This document shows, one piece after another, positions 12,336 to 41,341 of a stretch of 64,000 bases of DNA. The stretch lies in the IMG/VR virus record IMGVR_UViG_3300023245_000013; one strand, 5' to 3'. The DNA is from a virus. Position 1 is the first letter of the stretch; the number at the start of each line of letters is the position of its first letter. A program made the translations under genes and the position numbers. The notes beneath the pieces were generated by a model. The model ran no database searches. It saw only the letters and a list, made by a program, of their open reading frames with translations, and had not been told where the DNA came from.

Positions 12336-12373
12336 AAAAAGCACCCTCTGCAAAGATGTGGTGCTTTTTTTTT
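12336..12373 (+). terminator. intrinsic terminator between the motif RNAs and Ro60
   Basis: AAAAAGCACC...GGTGCTTTTTTTTT. Confidence 0.6.
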
Positions 12374-12427
12374 ATGCGCCAAAAACAAAGAATTAATAGA
12401 ATAACAACAATTATAAACAACGACGAG

Positions 12428-13948
12428 ATGTCAAAATTTAACGAAAAATCAAAGGTAGAAATGACTACCAACAAAGCGGGAGGAGAGGCTTATAAGTCGA
12501 CTCCAGAGTTAGAGCTTGTGACGATTCTGTTGAACTCGTTTGTGTCTGATGACTTCTATTCGAAGGCAGGAGACCAAATAAAGGAGTTGACATCCGTTCT
12601 TAGCAAAGTGGACCCAGAGTTCGCAGCAAAGGCGGCTGTCTATGCCCGTAACGAGTTTGGAATGCGTTCTATCACCCACGTACTTGCGGGTGAAATCGCT
12701 AAGCACGCCTCAGGTAAGGCCTGGGCTAAAGAGTTTTACGCAGCTATTGTACGTCGTCCAGACGACATGACTGAGATTATGTCCTACTACTTCGGTAGAG
12801 AGGGTAAGAAAGCATCTTTGCCAAACGCGCTAAAGAAAGGTTTCAAGAAAGCTTTCGGAAAGTTCGATGCATACCAGCTTGCCAAGTACAGAGGAGACAA
12901 GAATGAAGTATCGCTTGTTGACGTTGTAAACTTGGTTCGTCCAAAAGGAACGGCTAGAAACGAGAAGGCACTTGCCGAGCTTGTTGCTGGAACCCTAAAG
13001 AGTGAAAACACTTTCGAGTCTAAGCTGTCCGCAGCTGGCCAGGGAGCGAAGACCTCTGAGGAGAAAGCCGCAAACAAAGCTGAGGCTTGGTCTGACTTGG
13101 TTATGTCAGGTAAGATTGGACAGTTTGCTCTTCTAAGAAACCTTAGAAACATCATCCAAGATGCTTCTGACGAGGTTCTTAACAAGGCATGCGAGCTGTT
13201 GACTACAGAGGCAAGAATTAAGAAGTCACTGATTCTTCCATTCAGATACATCACTGCACTCGACGAGATTACAGTGTTGACTGGAACAAAGTCTAAGAAA
13301 GTTCAAAGAGCGCTTAACACCGCCGTAGACCTAGCTTGTTCTAACATTCCAAAGTTTGATGGAAACACTGCAGTCGTAATTGACCTGTCAGGTTCTATGG
13401 ATTGCCCAATTGCTGGAGGTAAAACTTACAGGAATAAAGTGGCAGCTCTATTTGGAGCCATGATGGCCAAGGCTAGTGATGCTGATGTAATGTCGTTTGG
13501 AACACACGCAATGTACCTTCCAGTTAACGTGAATGACTCAGTAATGGGTATGGCAAACTGGATTGTTGATACAAACCAAGGCTACGGCAACGTTGGCAAG
13601 TACAGGGTTGGTCACGGAACGAACTTCCAAGACATCTTCGTTAAGATGAAGGCGAAATACGACCGTGTATTCATCTTCTCGGACATGCAAGCGTGGATGG
13701 AGTACAATACTCCAAAAACTCAGTTTGCAGCGTACAAGAAGAAGTACGGTGCTCAGGACTGTAAAGTTTACGAGTTCAACTTGGCTGCAAGCGGAAGCAT
13801 GCAGTTCCCAGAGAAGAACGTATTCGCGCTAAGAGGATTCTCTGAAAAGATTTTTGATGTCATTGACAATCTAGAAGTCGACAAAAGAGCGCTTATCAAC
13901 ACTATCAACAATTATGTTGATTTTGCTGAGCTTGCAACTAAGGAATAA
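12428..13948 (+). CDS. rsr: Ro60/Rsr TROVE-vWA RNA-binding protein
   Basis: NKAGGEAY, ARNEFGMRSI, YQLAKY, FALLRNLRNI, ILPFRYITA, vWA DLSGSM, GTNF and IFSDMQ; ATG 12428 preferred. Confidence 0.92.
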   Translation: MSKFNEKSKVEMTTNKAGGEAYKSTPELELVTILLNSFVSDDFYSKAGDQIKELTSVLSKVDPEFAAKAAVYARNEFGMRSITHVLAGEIAKHASGKAWAKEFYAAIVRRPDDMTEIMSYYFGREGKKASLPNALKKGFKKAFGKFDAYQLAKYRGDKNEVSLVDVVNLVRPKGTARNEKALAELVAGTLKSENTFESKLSAAGQGAKTSEEKAANKAEAWSDLVMSGKIGQFALLRNLRNIIQDASDEVLNKACELLTTEARIKKSLILPFRYITALDEITVLTGTKSKKVQRALNTAVDLACSNIPKFDGNTAVVIDLSGSMDCPIAGGKTYRNKVAALFGAMMAKASDADVMSFGTHAMYLPVNVNDSVMGMANWIVDTNQGYGNVGKYRVGHGTNFQDIFVKMKAKYDRVFIFSDMQAWMEYNTPKTQFAAYKKKYGAQDCKVYEFNLAASGSMQFPEKNVFALRGFSEKIFDVIDNLEVDKRALINTINNYVDFAELATKE

Positions 13949-17063: not shown

Positions 17064-17483
17064 ATGAAAAAAGCATTAGACAACCAGTAAGTACACCCTT
17101 CTACAGAGAAGAAAAACTTAAAGCTTTACATCGTCGTAAGACGAGACCTCGCTCCTGGAGCGCAGGCAACTCAAGGAATGCATTCATTCCACGTATTCAA
17201 TCAAGAATACACAGCCATTTATGAAAAATGGTTATCGAATCCATATTTAGGATTCTTATCAGTCAAAGACGAGCAAGAACTCATCGAGCTCCGAGACAAA
17301 CTCACGCAAAAAGGTATTAATTTCAGTTCCTTCCAGGAGCCTGACCTCGACAACCAGTTCACGTCTATTACCGTAGAACCAGGGAAAGAATCTGCCCGTT
17401 GGTTATCTAGTCTACCACTTGCTTTCAAAGAATTTACGAATCAACCAACTCTCAAGAGTTGTAATTGTAAAGAAGCCGCATGA
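17064..17483 (+). CDS. Pth2-like peptidyl-tRNA hydrolase with in-frame TAA at codon 9
   Basis: MKKALDNQ*VHPSTEKKNL-KLYIVVRRDLAPGAQATQGMH...VKDEQELIEL...FQEPDLDNQFTSI...LSSLPL; the Pth2 first strand lies upstream of the next ATG (17178), so only ATG 17064 covers the domain. Confidence 0.7.
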
Positions 17484-17504
17484 TGATGCAGGTTTCCATA
17501 TCAC

Positions 17505-17551
17505 GGTGCGAGAGCTTTTGGCTCATGGGACATTCGATTGTCCCCGCACCA
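17505..17551 (+). ncRNA. anticodon-less mini-tRNA, type A1
   Basis: GGTGCG/CGCACC acceptor, one hairpin GAGC/GCTC, T-like arm GGGAC-ATTCGATT-GTCCC. Confidence 0.65.
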
Positions 17552-17555
17552 CTAC

Positions 17556-17604
17556 GGCGGATGCATAAGCACCAGTTCAGGTTAAAGTCCTGAATCCGCC
17601 ACCA
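17556..17604 (+). ncRNA. anticodon-less mini-tRNA, type B1
   Basis: GGCGGAT/ATCCGCC acceptor plus ACCA, GCATAAGCAC linker, T-like arm TCAGG-TTAAAGT-CCTGA. Confidence 0.7.
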
Positions 17605-17678
17605 GACGGGATAGCTCAGCGGTTAGAGCACCAGGCCTTAAAAACCTGGGGACGAGAGTTCGAATCTTTCTCCTGTCA
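17605..17678 (+). tRNA. atypical tRNA with 9-nt anticodon loop CCUUAAAAA (UUA or UAA reading)
   Basis: Acceptor GACGGGA/TCCTGTC, canonical D arm, CCAGG/CCTGG stem, short variable loop, GTTCGAAT T loop. Confidence 0.8.
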
Positions 17679-17714
17679 CAACAAAAGTTCATTGACGTGT
17701 TGGAATTTAAAAAA

Positions 17715-17768
17715 GGCGTGAGAGTCCATTAGGGATTCGCGGGAGATTCGTTTCTTCCCACGCCACCA
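17715..17768 (+). ncRNA. anticodon-less mini-tRNA, type A2
   Basis: GGCGTG/CACGCC plus ACCA, hairpin GAGTCC/GGATTC, T-like arm GGGAG-ATTCGTTT-CTTCC. Confidence 0.7.
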
Positions 17769-17769
17769 C

Positions 17770-17815
17770 GGCCCCTGCATTAGCACTAGAGGAAGAGAAA
17801 GTCTTCCTGGGGCCT
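17770..17815 (+). ncRNA. anticodon-less mini-tRNA, type B2
   Basis: GGCCCC/GGGGCC, GCATTAGCACTAG linker, AGGAAG-AGAAAGT-CTTCCT. Confidence 0.65.
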
Positions 17816-17818
17816 CTT

Positions 17819-17898
17819 GGTGAGGTAGCTCAGTTGGTTCAGAGCACCAGGCTTTAAAACCCTGGAGGTCGAAGGTTCAAGTCCTTCCCTCACCACCA
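17819..17898 (+). tRNA. atypical tRNA with 9-nt anticodon loop CUUUAAAAC (UUA or UAA reading)
   Basis: GGTGAGG/CCTCACC plus ACCA, canonical D and T arms, CCAGG/CCTGG stem. Confidence 0.8.
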
Positions 17899-17899
17899 C

Positions 17900-17945
17900 G
17901 CCGCTTGCATTAGCACTAGAATAGGTGAGATTCCTGTTAGCGGCA
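17900..17945 (+). ncRNA. anticodon-less mini-tRNA, type B3
   Basis: GCCGCT/AGCGGC, GCATTAGCACTAG linker, AATAGG-TGAGATT-CCTGTT. Confidence 0.65.
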
Positions 17946-17948
17946 CTT

Positions 17949-18091
17949 CCTGGAGTAGCTCAGTTGGTTAGAGCACCACCCTGATAAATGAGGAAAAGGA
18001 TTGAAACGCAACCTGCGTGGCCACAAGGGTTGTGAAGTAGAGAATTGGAATCGAACGGTGGGGGTCGGGGGTTCGAGCCCTTCCTCCAGGA
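17949..18091 (+). tRNA. tRNA-Ile(GAU) with ~69-nt insertion at the 3' side of the anticodon loop
   Basis: CCTGGAG/CTCCAGG, D arm, CCACC-CTGATAA-[insert 17988-18056]-GGTGG, GGTTCGAGC T loop. Confidence 0.8.
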
Positions 18092-18097
18092 CAATTT

Positions 18098-18264
18098 CCT
18101 GCGATAGCTTAGATATGTTAAAGCACCACACTGATAATGTGGAAGACGAACCGAAAGGACTCAGTTCGGGATGCAAACACAAAAACTCACTTGCGTGGCC
18201 ACAAGAGTGAGTTAGTAGTTGATGTTGAAGAAATGATGGGGGGCAGAACCCTCTCGCGGGACCA
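18098..18264 (+). tRNA. tRNA-Ile(GAU) with ~89-nt insertion at the variable loop/T-stem junction
   Basis: CCTGCGA/TCGCGGG plus ACCA, CCACA-CTGATAA-TGTGG, insert ~18149-18237, non-canonical T loop GGCAGAA. Confidence 0.7.
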
Positions 18265-18324
18265 TTATAATGAGCAGTGAGATGCTTGGGGAGGCGCTGT
18301 TCTCATAAACAACTTCCCCCACAT

Positions 18325-18376
18325 GGCGTGAGAATCTGAAAGAAGATTCGCGTGAGATTCGTTTCTCCCCACGCCA
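18325..18376 (+). ncRNA. anticodon-less mini-tRNA, type A3
   Basis: GGCGTG/CACGCC, hairpin GAATCT/AGATTC, GTGAG-ATTCGTTT-CTCCC; clear paralogue of A2. Confidence 0.65.
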
Positions 18377-18433
18377 CAACATGGGCGGATTGCACCAAGA
18401 TTTTTAAGGAAATGTTCGAACGAGTACTTAAAA

Positions 18434-18508
18434 GGATGGAAGGCGCAAAACTAGATGGCTTAGCGGCCATAAGAAAAGTTGTAGGTTCGATTCCTATTCC
18501 GTTCACCA
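18434..18508 (+). tRNA. degenerate tRNA (UAG-containing 6-nt loop)
   Basis: GGATGGA/TCCGTTC plus ACCA, good T arm, poor D arm, ATGGC-TTAGCG-GCCAT. Confidence 0.5.
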
Positions 18509-18530
18509 AACAATAAAAAAAACGAAAGCT

Positions 18531-19043
18531 ATGGTAGAGACAAACAGAATTACACCCCAAGTGGTGATTGATGCTTTATGTGAGAGATTAAACCCGAAGC
18601 CTGGAGCGAGAATACTAGAACCATCTGCAGGCACAGGAGTATTGGCGGACGGGGTTCAAGAAAAATTCCAACAGTGTAAAATTGACTGTGTAGAACTTAA
18701 TCAAGAATGCCGAGTCACACTGAAAGAAAAAGAATATGAGTTGGTTGGCTCAGACTTCTTCCGATTCGAAGCCCAGACACCATATGATTACGTCATTGCC
18801 TGTCCTAACTTTCGAGACAATGTCGATTGCAAACACATCATGCACATGTATGACCAACTTGCACCAGGCGGAACAATCTCAAGCTTAACATCTCCTTTTT
18901 GGATGGTTGGAGAGACTTAACTGCACAAAGAATTCCGTGAGTGGCTTCAAGATAAGAACTACTCCGTGACAATGGTCCCAGATTATTCATTTGTTGAGGA
19001 TTACAAAACTGTACCCTCAGCTATAATCCGAATCAAGAAATGA
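18531..19043 (+). CDS. class I SAM-dependent (DNA adenine) methyltransferase with in-frame TAA at 18918-18920
   Basis: RILEPSAGTG, DCVELN, SDFF, VIACPNF; after the TAA the frame continues LHKEFREWL...DYSF...VPSAIIRIKK to TGA overlapping the next ATG. Confidence 0.65.
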
Positions 19044-20559: not shown

Positions 20560-21249
20560 ATGCGAAACCCCACAAAGAAGTTTGAAAACGATAATATATC
20601 ATTTTATAGATACAGCTGGGGAAAACCAGTTGCTTTTCACTTAACTTACGAGTGCCACGGGTATTCTGATGATGAGAGACCCCAAATCCATATAGCATTC
20701 CTATTCTGGAGCCTGTTTTGGAGTATGCCCTGGTCACACAAGAGAAAGGATTACGGCGACTCAGAACAGTACGGCTGTTATTGGTATCAGGATGGTTGGC
20801 AGAGTCAGAGCTTTGTTATTCGTTACGGAAAGAAATCTAAATACATTAATATGCCCTGGAATCTCGACCACGTTCGCCACAGCATTAAACTGAAGGATGG
20901 AACATGGGTTCATTCAATAAAAGGCGACAAACAAGACTTTTATAAAGACGAATGGAAAGAGAAAATGTGGAGAACTAATATGCCGTATGTTGATAAGCAC
21001 ACTCCAAATGGAGAACTGAACGTGGTTAATGCCGATATATCCATCTCGGAGAGAGAATGGAGAATGAGATGGTTCAAACGAACAACTATGTTCAGCCAAG
21101 TGAGTCGTACAATTGACGTTGAATTCTCTTCAGAAGTAGGAAAGAGAAGAGGAAGCTGGAAAGGTGGAACCACTGGTTGTGGTGAAAGATTTGATAAACA
21201 CGAAACATGGAAGGACGGATTTGAGAGACTAACACAGAGAGTTTTTTAA
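20560..21249 (+). CDS. hypothetical protein
   Basis: 229-aa Trp-rich ORF. Confidence 0.6.
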   Translation: MRNPTKKFENDNISFYRYSWGKPVAFHLTYECHGYSDDERPQIHIAFLFWSLFWSMPWSHKRKDYGDSEQYGCYWYQDGWQSQSFVIRYGKKSKYINMPWNLDHVRHSIKLKDGTWVHSIKGDKQDFYKDEWKEKMWRTNMPYVDKHTPNGELNVVNADISISEREWRMRWFKRTTMFSQVSRTIDVEFSSEVGKRRGSWKGGTTGCGERFDKHETWKDGFERLTQRVF

Positions 21250-40297: not shown

Positions 40298-40339
40298 TTA
40301 TTTGAAACAAAACCCAATTGAATGCGTATATTTGCTTAC

Positions 40340-41341
40340 ATGAGAAAACTAGCAACCATTCGGAGAATAGAATCACTACATCCTATTAAAAAAGCTGACC
40401 GTATCGAACTTGCAAAAGTTGGTGGTTGGAGGTCAGTGGTCAAAAAAGGAGAATTCAATGTTGGCGACATGGTAGTTTATTGTGAGATAGATTCTTTATT
40501 GCCTGTGAAAGAAGAATTTGAGTTTCTTCGAAAATCTTGTTTTAGAGAATTGCCATATGGAGTTTCGGGGTTCCGATTAAGAACAATGAAACTTCGAGGT
40601 CAAATATCACAAGGCCTCATACTTCCTTTGTCAGTTCTTTCTTCAGGAGATTTTAAAATTGGAGAAGATGTAACTGAGCAGTTACAGATAATCAAGTACG
40701 ACCCACCTATTCCAAAAGAAATGATGGAAAGTGCAATTGGAGTTTTTCCGTCGTTTATTAAAAAGACAGAAGAGGAAAGAATTCAAAACTTAGATTCGGA
40801 GATAGAGCTTTTAAAGGGGCGAACTTTTTTCGTAACTGAAAAACTTAATGGACTCTCGATGACAGTTTTTCATAACGCAAACGAATTTGGCGTTTGTGGA
40901 AGAAACTATCAATATAAAAAACTTGAAAGCAATGCTTTGTGGTCTTCGGCGATAGAAGAAGGGCTAGAAGAGAAATTAAAAGCTTACGGTAAAAATATTG
41001 CTATTCAAGGCGAGTTGGTTGGGCCTGGAATCAGCGATAATCCATATGAGCTTGTGACAAAAGAATACCGAGTTTATAACATATTCAACATTGATGAATA
41101 CGCATACCTCTCGAAAAAAGATTGTCAAGAATTAGCCACTCAAATGAGCCTAAAGTTAGTTCCACTTGTCTCAGCGTCTATGGCATTGCCTGAATCTGTA
41201 GATGCCATCCTAGAAATGGCTGATGGACCAAGCCAGTTAAATCCAGAGACTCAGAAAGAAGGAGATGTTTGGGTAAGCGGCGATGGACAAGATAGAGTCT
41301 CTTTTAAAGTTATTTCGAATCATTTTTTATTGGAGGAATGA
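40340..41341 (+). CDS. ATP-dependent RNA ligase, DRB0094/Rnl2-like family
   Basis: RKLATIRRI, ADRIELA, VYCEIDSLLP, LRGQISQGL, motif I TEKLNG, IQGELVG, KEG, SFKVIS. Confidence 0.9.
   Translation: MRKLATIRRIESLHPIKKADRIELAKVGGWRSVVKKGEFNVGDMVVYCEIDSLLPVKEEFEFLRKSCFRELPYGVSGFRLRTMKLRGQISQGLILPLSVLSSGDFKIGEDVTEQLQIIKYDPPIPKEMMESAIGVFPSFIKKTEEERIQNLDSEIELLKGRTFFVTEKLNGLSMTVFHNANEFGVCGRNYQYKKLESNALWSSAIEEGLEEKLKAYGKNIAIQGELVGPGISDNPYELVTKEYRVYNIFNIDEYAYLSKKDCQELATQMSLKLVPLVSASMALPESVDAILEMADGPSQLNPETQKEGDVWVSGDGQDRVSFKVISNHFLLEE

Follow-up and report, generated by a model that had tools for sequence, protein, structure and literature searches.

We analysed a stretch of phage DNA of 64,000 nucleotides (nt), hereafter the window, which corresponds to the reverse complement of bases 869-64868 of the IMG/VR virus record IMGVR_UViG_3300023245_000013 (141,051 bp). 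At positions 17949-18264 the window holds a tandem pair of genes derived from an isoleucine transfer RNA (tRNA), tRNA-Ile(GAU). Copy 1 (17949-18091) and copy 2 (18098-18264) lie on the plus strand, as do all their parts described below, and are separated by a plus-strand spacer of 6 nt (18092-18097), which measures 5-10 nt in all relatives. Each gene carries additional sequence, at a different position of the tRNA, and both additions contain the same hairpin module. A sequence-only reading of the window had proposed that these additions are either protein-spliced introns or copies of a tiny mobile element that targets tRNA genes.

Copy 1 is recognized by the Rfam tRNA model (RF00005) with 49.9 bits (cut-off 29), in a match that spans the full model (positions 1-71) and passes over about 70 nt after position 37; its homologue in the related contig L258 scores 52.2 bits. 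With introns allowed, ARAGORN calls a tRNA-Ile(GAU) with a 69-nt insert ('gataa-Intron-ggtgg', 17988-18056) between nt 38 and 39, in agreement with the earlier statement that about 69 nt are inserted 3' of the anticodon. The insertion point is fixed by tRNA-Ile genes of the usual kind from other organisms of these metagenomes: after matching 17955-17987/8 they pass without interruption into a normal 3' half, and thus diverge from copy 1 at 17987/17988. The 5' part (nt 1-38; 17949-17987) comprises the acceptor strand, the D arm and the 5' strand of the anticodon stem with the loop CUGAUAA, and its stems covary in the relatives. The 3' part (18057-18091) contributes the 3' strand of the anticodon stem, the variable loop, a canonical T arm (GGGGG-UUCGAGC-CCUUC), the second acceptor strand and A73.

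Between these two parts the insert of copy 1 (17988-18056) forms a 69-nt rod, as given by ARAGORN and by the consensus fold of seven lineages: the rod starts from a base helix (P1), continues through two short helices and the internal loop GAAAC/GAAGUA, and ends in a hairpin. The module hairpin (18008-18033) has a stem of 7 bp, which is followed by the internal loop GC/AA, the pairs GU/AC and the tip GGCC; it includes a 14-mer at 18014-18027 and is followed by AGUAG at 18036-18040. Over the seven lineages copy 1 as a whole is 95.9% paired, with 20 compensatory pairs. In the consensus fold the base helix of the rod abuts the anticodon stem across a bulge of 2-3 nt, and the seven loop nucleotides opposite stay unpaired. 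Among six lineages the insert shows 67-93% identity (36-46% to L268); it is more conserved than the exons only in the comparison of the window with L253, and about equally conserved over the family. A likeness of the 3' tail of the insert to a T arm is weaker in L253 and was taken as a coincidence with the T-loop consensus.

A cloverleaf is also formed by copy 2: its acceptor stem has 7 bp, a D arm is present, the anticodon arm with the loop CUGAUAA is intact, and a weak T arm and A73-CCA complete the structure. Its variable region measures 94 nt (18143-18236), which is about 89 nt above the usual 5 and matches the number of extra nucleotides that had been placed there from the sequence alone. 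The 5' part (18098-18142) holds the acceptor strand, the D arm and the complete anticodon arm (CCACA-CUGAUAA-UGUGG). In the variable region ACCGAAAGGAC (18150-18160) is followed by a closing helix UCA/UGA (18161-18163 with 18234-18236), and the module lies inside this helix, with its hairpin at 18185-18212, the 14-mer at 18192-18205 and AGUAG at 18214-18218. The 3' part (18237-18264) adds the weak T arm (UGGGG-GGCAGAA-CCCUC), the 3' acceptor strand, A73 and an encoded CCA.

The scores of copy 2 against the Rfam tRNA model (21.4 bits on its 5' part, 23.8 bits for the L258 homologue) stay below the cut-off of 29, which leaves it outside the family. In the window the D loop lacks GG and the T loop (GGCAGAA) lacks UUC; these elbow partners are both lost in three lineages, the window included, whereas L253, L266, L267 and L268 keep canonical loops with a mismatched T stem. 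A U49xC65 mismatch in the T stem is kept in all lineages and position 37 varies between A, G and U. Even so, the stems covary, with 96.6% of positions paired and 19 pairs changed on both sides. This includes the closing helix of the extra domain (UCA/UGA in the window, CCA/UGG or UCG/CGA elsewhere), for which four of the five pairs in the consensus helix 72-78/145-151 are changed on both sides; the 11-nt ACCGAAAGGAC is unchanged in six of seven lineages. Given covarying stems together with a variable position 37, T-stem mismatches and lost elbow partners, copy 2 is under structural selection, though not as a decoder, and because the T-stem mismatches are conserved in all lineages, removal of the additional sequence would not leave a good tRNA. 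Judged from its sequence, copy 2 is certainly not an ordinary tRNA. A hairpin CGAAC/GUUCG suggested by single-sequence folding of copy 2 is not kept in the relatives and was dropped. The stretch directly 3' of copy 2 (18262-18300, ATTATAATGAGCAGTGAGATGCTTGG) is well conserved in all relatives and includes a TATAAT-like hexamer.

The 14-mer shared by the two hairpins, TGCGTGGCCACAAG, is present at 18014 and 18192, as the sequence-only reading had reported, and at no other place in the window; matches with 3 mismatches occur in the window at chance level. Wherever the description of the pair in that reading could be checked, it proved correct. The layout is the same in both copies: stem, TGCGTGGCCACAAG, stem, and AGTAG starting after an 8-nt gap from the motif. 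Beyond the hairpin both copies continue with an internal loop that has an A-rich 5' side and NNAGUA on its 3' side and is closed by a short helix. The palindrome GTGGCCAC has only these two occurrences in the 141-kb record. When 15 modules are aligned, UGGCCA is invariant and GCGUGGCCACAA nearly so, whereas the stems differ freely; on the tRNA side, C32-U36 (CUGAU) is identical in all 15 sequences.

The 9-pair hairpin is well supported by covariation: 94.8% of cells in the alignment of 15 modules are standard pairs, and six of the nine pairs are changed on both sides. None of 500 shuffles reaches the observed value, and sliding the partner strand by 1-3 columns reduces pairing to 30-54%. A matched double change is also seen at the apex in copy 1 of L268 (GUGGCCAC to AUGGCCAU). 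Many of the stem pairs are G.U, which would be A x C mismatches on the other strand, and hence the fold belongs to the plus-strand RNA. When 220 kb were searched with a covariance model of the module (R1), each phage gave exactly two matches and no others appeared at E<=1; the 141-kb genome has no third copy. On this comparative evidence it is firm how the module is built, that it is conserved and confined to two genes, and that it forms on the plus strand: it is a real, conserved RNA domain of the plus-strand transcript, specific to the tandem tRNA-Ile-derived pair.

Relatives were located by means of neighbouring proteins and not by motif scans. The complete tandem pair is present in six other phage lineages, and a partial copy 2 in a seventh (L265); in every lineage with the pair, from L253 to L268, copy 1 precedes copy 2 at a distance of 5-10 nt. 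In L253, with a Ro60 homologue of 92% identity, the whole array is syntenic and the DNA is 82% identical. Homologues of the methyltransferase-like protein encoded downstream of the pair (65-86% identical to that of the window) led to L258/L259, L263/L264, L265 (partial), L266, L267 and L268, and more distant homologues (41% identity) to L269 and L270. In these two the tRNA-Ile(GAU) gene (L269:1066-1243, L270:3034-3216) has an unrelated insert of 103-106 nt at the same 38/39 site. Within this second insert a hairpin resembles a T arm (GGUUCGAAAC in the loop region), and its stem varies in a compensatory manner. The gene adjoins an amber-suppressor tRNA(CUA) in both, and in L269 also a Pth2 gene.

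The sequence-only reading had suggested that the motif be sought in other phage tRNAs. The module does recur, in the same two genes of six other lineages; scans for the exact motif in IMG/VR, JGI metagenomes and GTDB genomes (using the 14-mer, the 14-mer with AGTAG and a spacer 15-mer) gave, among the matches listed, coding or chance occurrences only and no hairpin context. Searches of IMG/VR with the two small neighbouring proteins returned no match, and a search of the same database with the large terminase returned only 100% identical records. Three further records contain all 17 words sampled from the insert and are therefore near-identical copies. Among GenBank phages no relative of the locus was found, only generic tRNA matches. 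The contigs with Ro60 relatives were, except for L253, too short or without the array. DNA contigs from four salt-lake runs show the same sequence, with no joint across either insert and no insert-free variant.

The genes that flank the pair are conserved as well. Upstream lies a gene for a Pth2-like protein (17178-17483, plus strand; weak Pfam match) with synteny in L253, L263 and L269, and downstream the gene for a small S-adenosylmethionine (SAM)-methyltransferase-like protein (18531-18920, plus strand) that was used to locate the relatives. A Ro60/TROVE gene (12356-13948) is found on the same strand about 3.6 kb upstream of the pair, in conserved synteny, and suppressor tRNAs are encoded nearby. 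Other RNA-related genes of the record encode an ATP-type RNA ligase and a Cas3-type helicase; an Acb3-family protein is also present, and the window further encodes T5orf172 and GIY-YIG-like nucleases. The RNA ligase (40322-41341, plus strand; PF09414 with a PHA02142 OB domain) lies 22 kb from the pair among other tRNA genes, and would be a candidate sealing enzyme only if splicing happens. Of the two enzymes that had been named as possible exon joiners the ligase is real, whereas the '2H phosphoesterase' is probably the protein encoded at 20560-21249. This protein has two HxT motifs (HLT at 27, HET at 214) and is assigned by Pfam to the family 'CBASS inhibitor Acb3' (E 7e-34); the LigT-type families PF13563 and PF02834 have no match in the 141-kb record, with positive controls matched.

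The tRNA array around the pair shows several further peculiarities. Two well-scoring tRNA genes upstream (17605-17679, 59 bits; 17819-17898, 69 bits) have anticodon loops of 9 nt (CCUUAAAAA and CUUUAAAAC), which ARAGORN forces into Leu(UAA); in L266 one tRNA is given a four-letter anticodon call. A structured spacer of about 50 nt is present in three copies (17540-17604, 17754-17818 and 17884-17948), each situated between a CCA end and the next tRNA and directly abutting both. In this spacer an outer stem encloses the conserved TGCAT(T/A)AGCAC(T/C)AG and, after it, an inner hairpin; the stems of the copies differ in a compensatory way, and one such spacer precedes copy 1 in all relatives. A unit of 176 nt (spacer, the tRNA at 17819, spacer; 17769-17944) is missing from L253, which indicates that the array gains or loses whole units. 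Downstream, a weak tRNA-like gene (18418-18505, 23.3 bits) has about 32 nt where the anticodon arm should be; the inner hairpin there changes in a compensatory manner from AUGGC/GCCAU to GUGAC/GUCAC in L253. The D-loop region of this gene (AAAAGGAUGGAA) resembles AAAAGGAUUGAA within the insert of copy 1, and model R1 gives no match there.

The 141-kb record has a G+C content of 38.7% and an estimated completeness of 64% (CheckV). It represents a tailed giant phage, a salt-lake myophage with tail sheath and large terminase genes, and the sequencing runs that contain the stretch are salt-lake metagenomes. The tRNA-Tyr genes of the phage have long variable arms, and OmpA and ClpB domains are encoded; given these features the host is most likely a bacterium. 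In the whole record GATC and CCGG are absent (0 found against approximately 487 and 195 expected, respectively), whereas GGCC (161 observed against about 195-210 expected) and GCGC are at expected levels. From these counts the absence of GATC and CCGG is strong, site-specific restriction avoidance. Since GGCC is not avoided genome-wide, its preservation in the loop of the module says nothing on restriction.

How the pair is to be read is a matter of weighing. We favour, at about an even chance, the reading that both genes give rise to tRNA-Ile(GAU)-derived RNAs that display a putative functional binding domain, with copy 2 as a non-decoding look-alike. In favour of this reading are the presence of one module in two genes at two tRNA positions, its invariant loop, the structural selection on a copy 2 that is not made for decoding, and the poor tRNA that would be left without the extra domain of copy 2; the module is conserved in the manner of a working RNA domain rather than of mobile DNA or a classical intron. 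Each gene carries the same RNA domain of about 45-50 nt, built from a short closing helix, the A-rich/AGUA internal loop, the 7-bp stem and the apical GC-GU-GGCC-AC-AA with its core UGGCCA. In copy 1 this domain is grafted between nt 38 and 39, and in copy 2 it sits inside the enlarged variable arm with a closing helix of its own. It may act as a binding site for a protein or, by way of its self-complementary loop, for its twin. Such loop-loop pairing is a concrete idea because the invariant, self-complementary UGGCCA is found at both tips and the genes are always adjacent. The tRNA body would supply folding, stability and end-processing, and would retain the tRNA-Ile marks CUGAU and A73. A single precursor transcript might be trimmed by RNase P and RNase Z with the domain kept in the mature RNA. 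Copy 1 may then be the same kind of RNA as copy 2, or it may also be a precursor that releases the domain. As for function, the constant presence of the Pth2-like gene and the small methyltransferase gene, together with suppressor tRNAs nearby, suggests a role in tRNA handling; the two constant neighbours are the only pointer to the more specific role of an adaptor or decoy in the handling of tRNA-Ile.

Several observations on copy 1 speak against a displayed, retained domain. Without its insert copy 1 is a fully canonical tRNA-Ile, and it is the sole tRNA-Ile in the record; since 69 nt in the anticodon loop preclude decoding, excision would be needed for it to decode. The insert of L268 has diverged to 36-46% identity against 71-82% for the exons, and L269 and L270 hold their unrelated insert in the same tRNA at the same site; a fixed site with changing content is how introns behave. 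Moreover, the 3' end of the insert pairs with the anticodon (88.5% of cells) about as well as with the insert's own 5' end (78.6%); the alternative partner of this segment is UGA at the 5' end of the insert, where compensatory changes are seen in L258. It might thus be argued that copy 1 is a true intron-bearing tRNA-Ile, in which nucleases of phage or host cut the 38/39 junction and the 2-3 nt bulge, the RNA ligase rejoins the ends and the rod serves as a handle for the enzymes, copy 2 being a diverged paralogue that retains the handle for another reason. This is the main rival reading, which we consider rather less likely than not. In its favour, the exons together make up a canonical tRNA whose stems change in a compensatory way, and 38 of the 39 nt of the 5' exon are identical to those of L270, with the lone change compensated in the acceptor stem, although the methyltransferase there is only 41% identical. 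The site is conserved while the content differs (W-type, L268-type and L269/L270-type), the 3' junction is always located in a bulge of 1-3 nt between the anticodon stem and a helix, and an ATP-type RNA ligase is encoded among the tRNA genes of the phage. Short, conserved introns in tRNAs of Lak phages provide a precedent (Devoto et al. 2019, PMC6784885). Against it, no endonuclease candidate was found: the splicing endonuclease family PF01974 and the RtcB family PF01139 are without a match in the 141-kb record (64% complete), whereas positive controls matched. In addition, the insert is as conserved as the exons among six lineages, which is more than a mere spacer needs, and the same module occurs in copy 2, where its removal would leave a poor T arm. 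Splicing of the archaeal type, with a bulge-helix-bulge (BHB) cut by an EndA-like endonuclease and sealed by RtcB, we consider hardly tenable. As a BHB we took two 3-nt bulges with a 4-bp helix between them, flanking helices and both splice sites placed. The pairing TGAT/ATCG pointed out earlier does exist as a possibility, since NUCG, close to where the insert ends, offers a partner for U33-U36 and leaves a 3-nt bulge next to the anticodon stem (the 88.5% of cells mentioned above, over seven lineages). It amounts to one bulge and a 4-bp helix, without a second flanking (h') helix and with C32 unpaired, so that it is not a full BHB; the bulge is only 2 nt in L258 and L263, and cuts two nt into each bulge would leave a loop of 8 nt. 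With the anticodon invariant, no pair of this helix is changed on both sides, and the phage looks bacterial (long variable arm in tRNA-Tyr; OmpA, ClpB and Acb3 domains). The proposal of protein-spliced introns may still hold for copy 1 and loses ground for copy 2.

Explanations at the level of DNA or of CRISPR are far less probable. The inserts (69 and about 89 nt) are, as had been remarked, too short for group I or group II introns, and no Rfam intron family reaches its gathering score anywhere in the window, nor E<=1 within 17500-18700; this candidate was rejected. A miniature element, mobile or homing, that inserts into tRNA genes at the DNA level would account for the same near-palindrome of about 30 bp at different sites in two tRNA genes, and T5orf172 and GIY-YIG-like nucleases are encoded in the window. 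We nevertheless regard it as very improbable, because there are two copies per genome only, at fixed sites in the same two genes of seven lineages, no target-site duplication is seen, and covarying stems with G.U pairs indicate selection at the RNA level; nor was the element found elsewhere in the three public collections among the matches listed, or an insert-free allele in the four salt-lake runs. The earlier suggestion of such an element thus finds no support. A further idea is an RNA anti-CRISPR, in which tRNA scaffolds present a mimic of a CRISPR repeat, copy 2 offering a repeat-like unit at the start of its extra domain and copy 1 the 5' handle common to many CRISPR RNAs (crRNAs; GGAUUGAAAC). 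Both 18139-18178 (14 bits) and L258:4039-4078 (19.3 bits, E 0.28) do align with all 37 positions of the Rfam family CRISPR-DR56, though far under its gathering score of 35. Such a repeat could fold only at the expense of the covarying anticodon stem, the relatives do not conserve the handle GGAUUGAAAC (AAUCAAAAG, GAUUCAAAAG, GAUGCAAAC) and the CRISPR repeat of the phage itself is unrelated to the module, all of which makes this mimicry an improbable explanation indeed. The loop as a Cas6 site was likewise dropped, as the flanking bases are not conserved. Finally, the hairpins might be minus-strand terminators or operators in double-stranded DNA, and the RNAs decaying pseudo-tRNAs. Although a pattern scan lists both hairpins as terminator-like on the minus strand, with an A run preceding them on the plus strand, and GTGGCCAC is a palindrome, we give scarcely any credence to this view: the G.U pairs would be mismatches on the minus strand, no minus-strand gene is nearby downstream, complementarity is kept rather than stem sequence, and all tRNA stems keep compensatory changes.

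The favoured reading, in which the domain is retained, and splicing of copy 1 do not exclude each other, as copy 1 might yield both a tRNA and the free domain. Going further, we put forward, tentatively and with considerable doubt, that phages of this clade run an undescribed protein-dependent tRNA splicing pathway in which the GGCC-tipped rod is the recognition handle and the module, excised from copy 1 and displayed by copy 2, serves as a small RNA or kissing-loop partner. If true, excision of the insert could time the availability of the phage tRNA-Ile. Short inserts in phage tRNAs have been on record since 2019 without a mechanism, and the present locus is an unusually clean system for them: it allows the same module to be compared at two tRNA positions, covariation across the seven lineages suffices to resolve the fold at the level of single base pairs, and more distant phages provide a second, unrelated insert at the same site. 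It can separate an intron from a functional RNA scaffolded by a tRNA. Either outcome would be new, be it a route of tRNA splicing in bacteria or phages or a class of tRNA-Ile look-alikes with a binding domain, the latter set between Pth2-like and methyltransferase genes in phages with suppressor tRNAs.

Among known systems, the introns of archaeal and eukaryotic tRNAs are recognized through a BHB or a ruler mechanism by EndA/Sen and sealed by RtcB or Trl1, and the catalytic core of a group I intron takes at least 200 nt. With protein-spliced tRNA introns copy 1 shares an insert adjoining the canonical 37/38 site, a 3' junction in a small bulge and the possible 4-bp pairing with the anticodon; it differs in its 38/39 junction, the incomplete BHB, an insert conserved like the exons, the bacterial context and the lack of a recognizable endonuclease gene in the record. 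A closer parallel is found in the 'enigmatic' introns of Lak megaphage tRNAs, which are short and highly conserved and were reported with no known mechanism (Devoto et al. 2019, PMC6784885); we found no later paper that provides one. Like these, copy 1 combines a short insert with an otherwise canonical phage tRNA, conserved across seven lineages, and the common features extend to a size far too small for group I, strong conservation between genomes, partial structure and the presence of suppressor tRNAs in the phages. Here, in contrast, one module occupies two tandem paralogues at two tRNA positions, one of them the variable arm, from which excision would not be expected; the module does not have the shape of a tRNA, and hosts and phage lineage differ (a salt-lake myophage with 38.7% GC).

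The other parallels concern tRNA-like bodies that carry an additional domain. Bacterial Y RNAs of the YrlA type, which act with Ro60, combine a tRNA-like body with a distinct module for protein binding (Chen et al. 2014, PMC4201824). The pair resembles them in this architecture and in the nearby Ro60 gene, and phage examples of YrlA are known, whereas in the pair the anticodon arm is kept and the two termini form a tRNA acceptor stem with free ends. The Ro60 motif of YrlA (GNCGAAN0-1G) is matched only loosely, by ACCGAAAG in copy 2. The YrlA family itself (RF02553) was rejected, as it matches neither copy (best 22.3 bits at 17554-17658 and 14.8 bits on L258, cut-off 69). Copy 2 also recalls the class II tRNAs (Ser, Leu and bacterial Tyr) by placing its extra domain at the variable-arm position, although those arms are single hairpins of 13-21 nt whereas this region is branched, 94 nt long and combined with an Ile anticodon, a degenerate T arm and a degenerate elbow. 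In engineered tRNA scaffolds and in the tRNA-miRNA units of murid herpesvirus 68, a tRNA body folds, stabilizes and processes a foreign RNA domain. The present pair is similar in that an RNA domain is placed in the anticodon arm of a tRNA body, and is distinguished from the engineered scaffolds in that these are natural phage genes in which the sequence of the anticodon loop has been kept.

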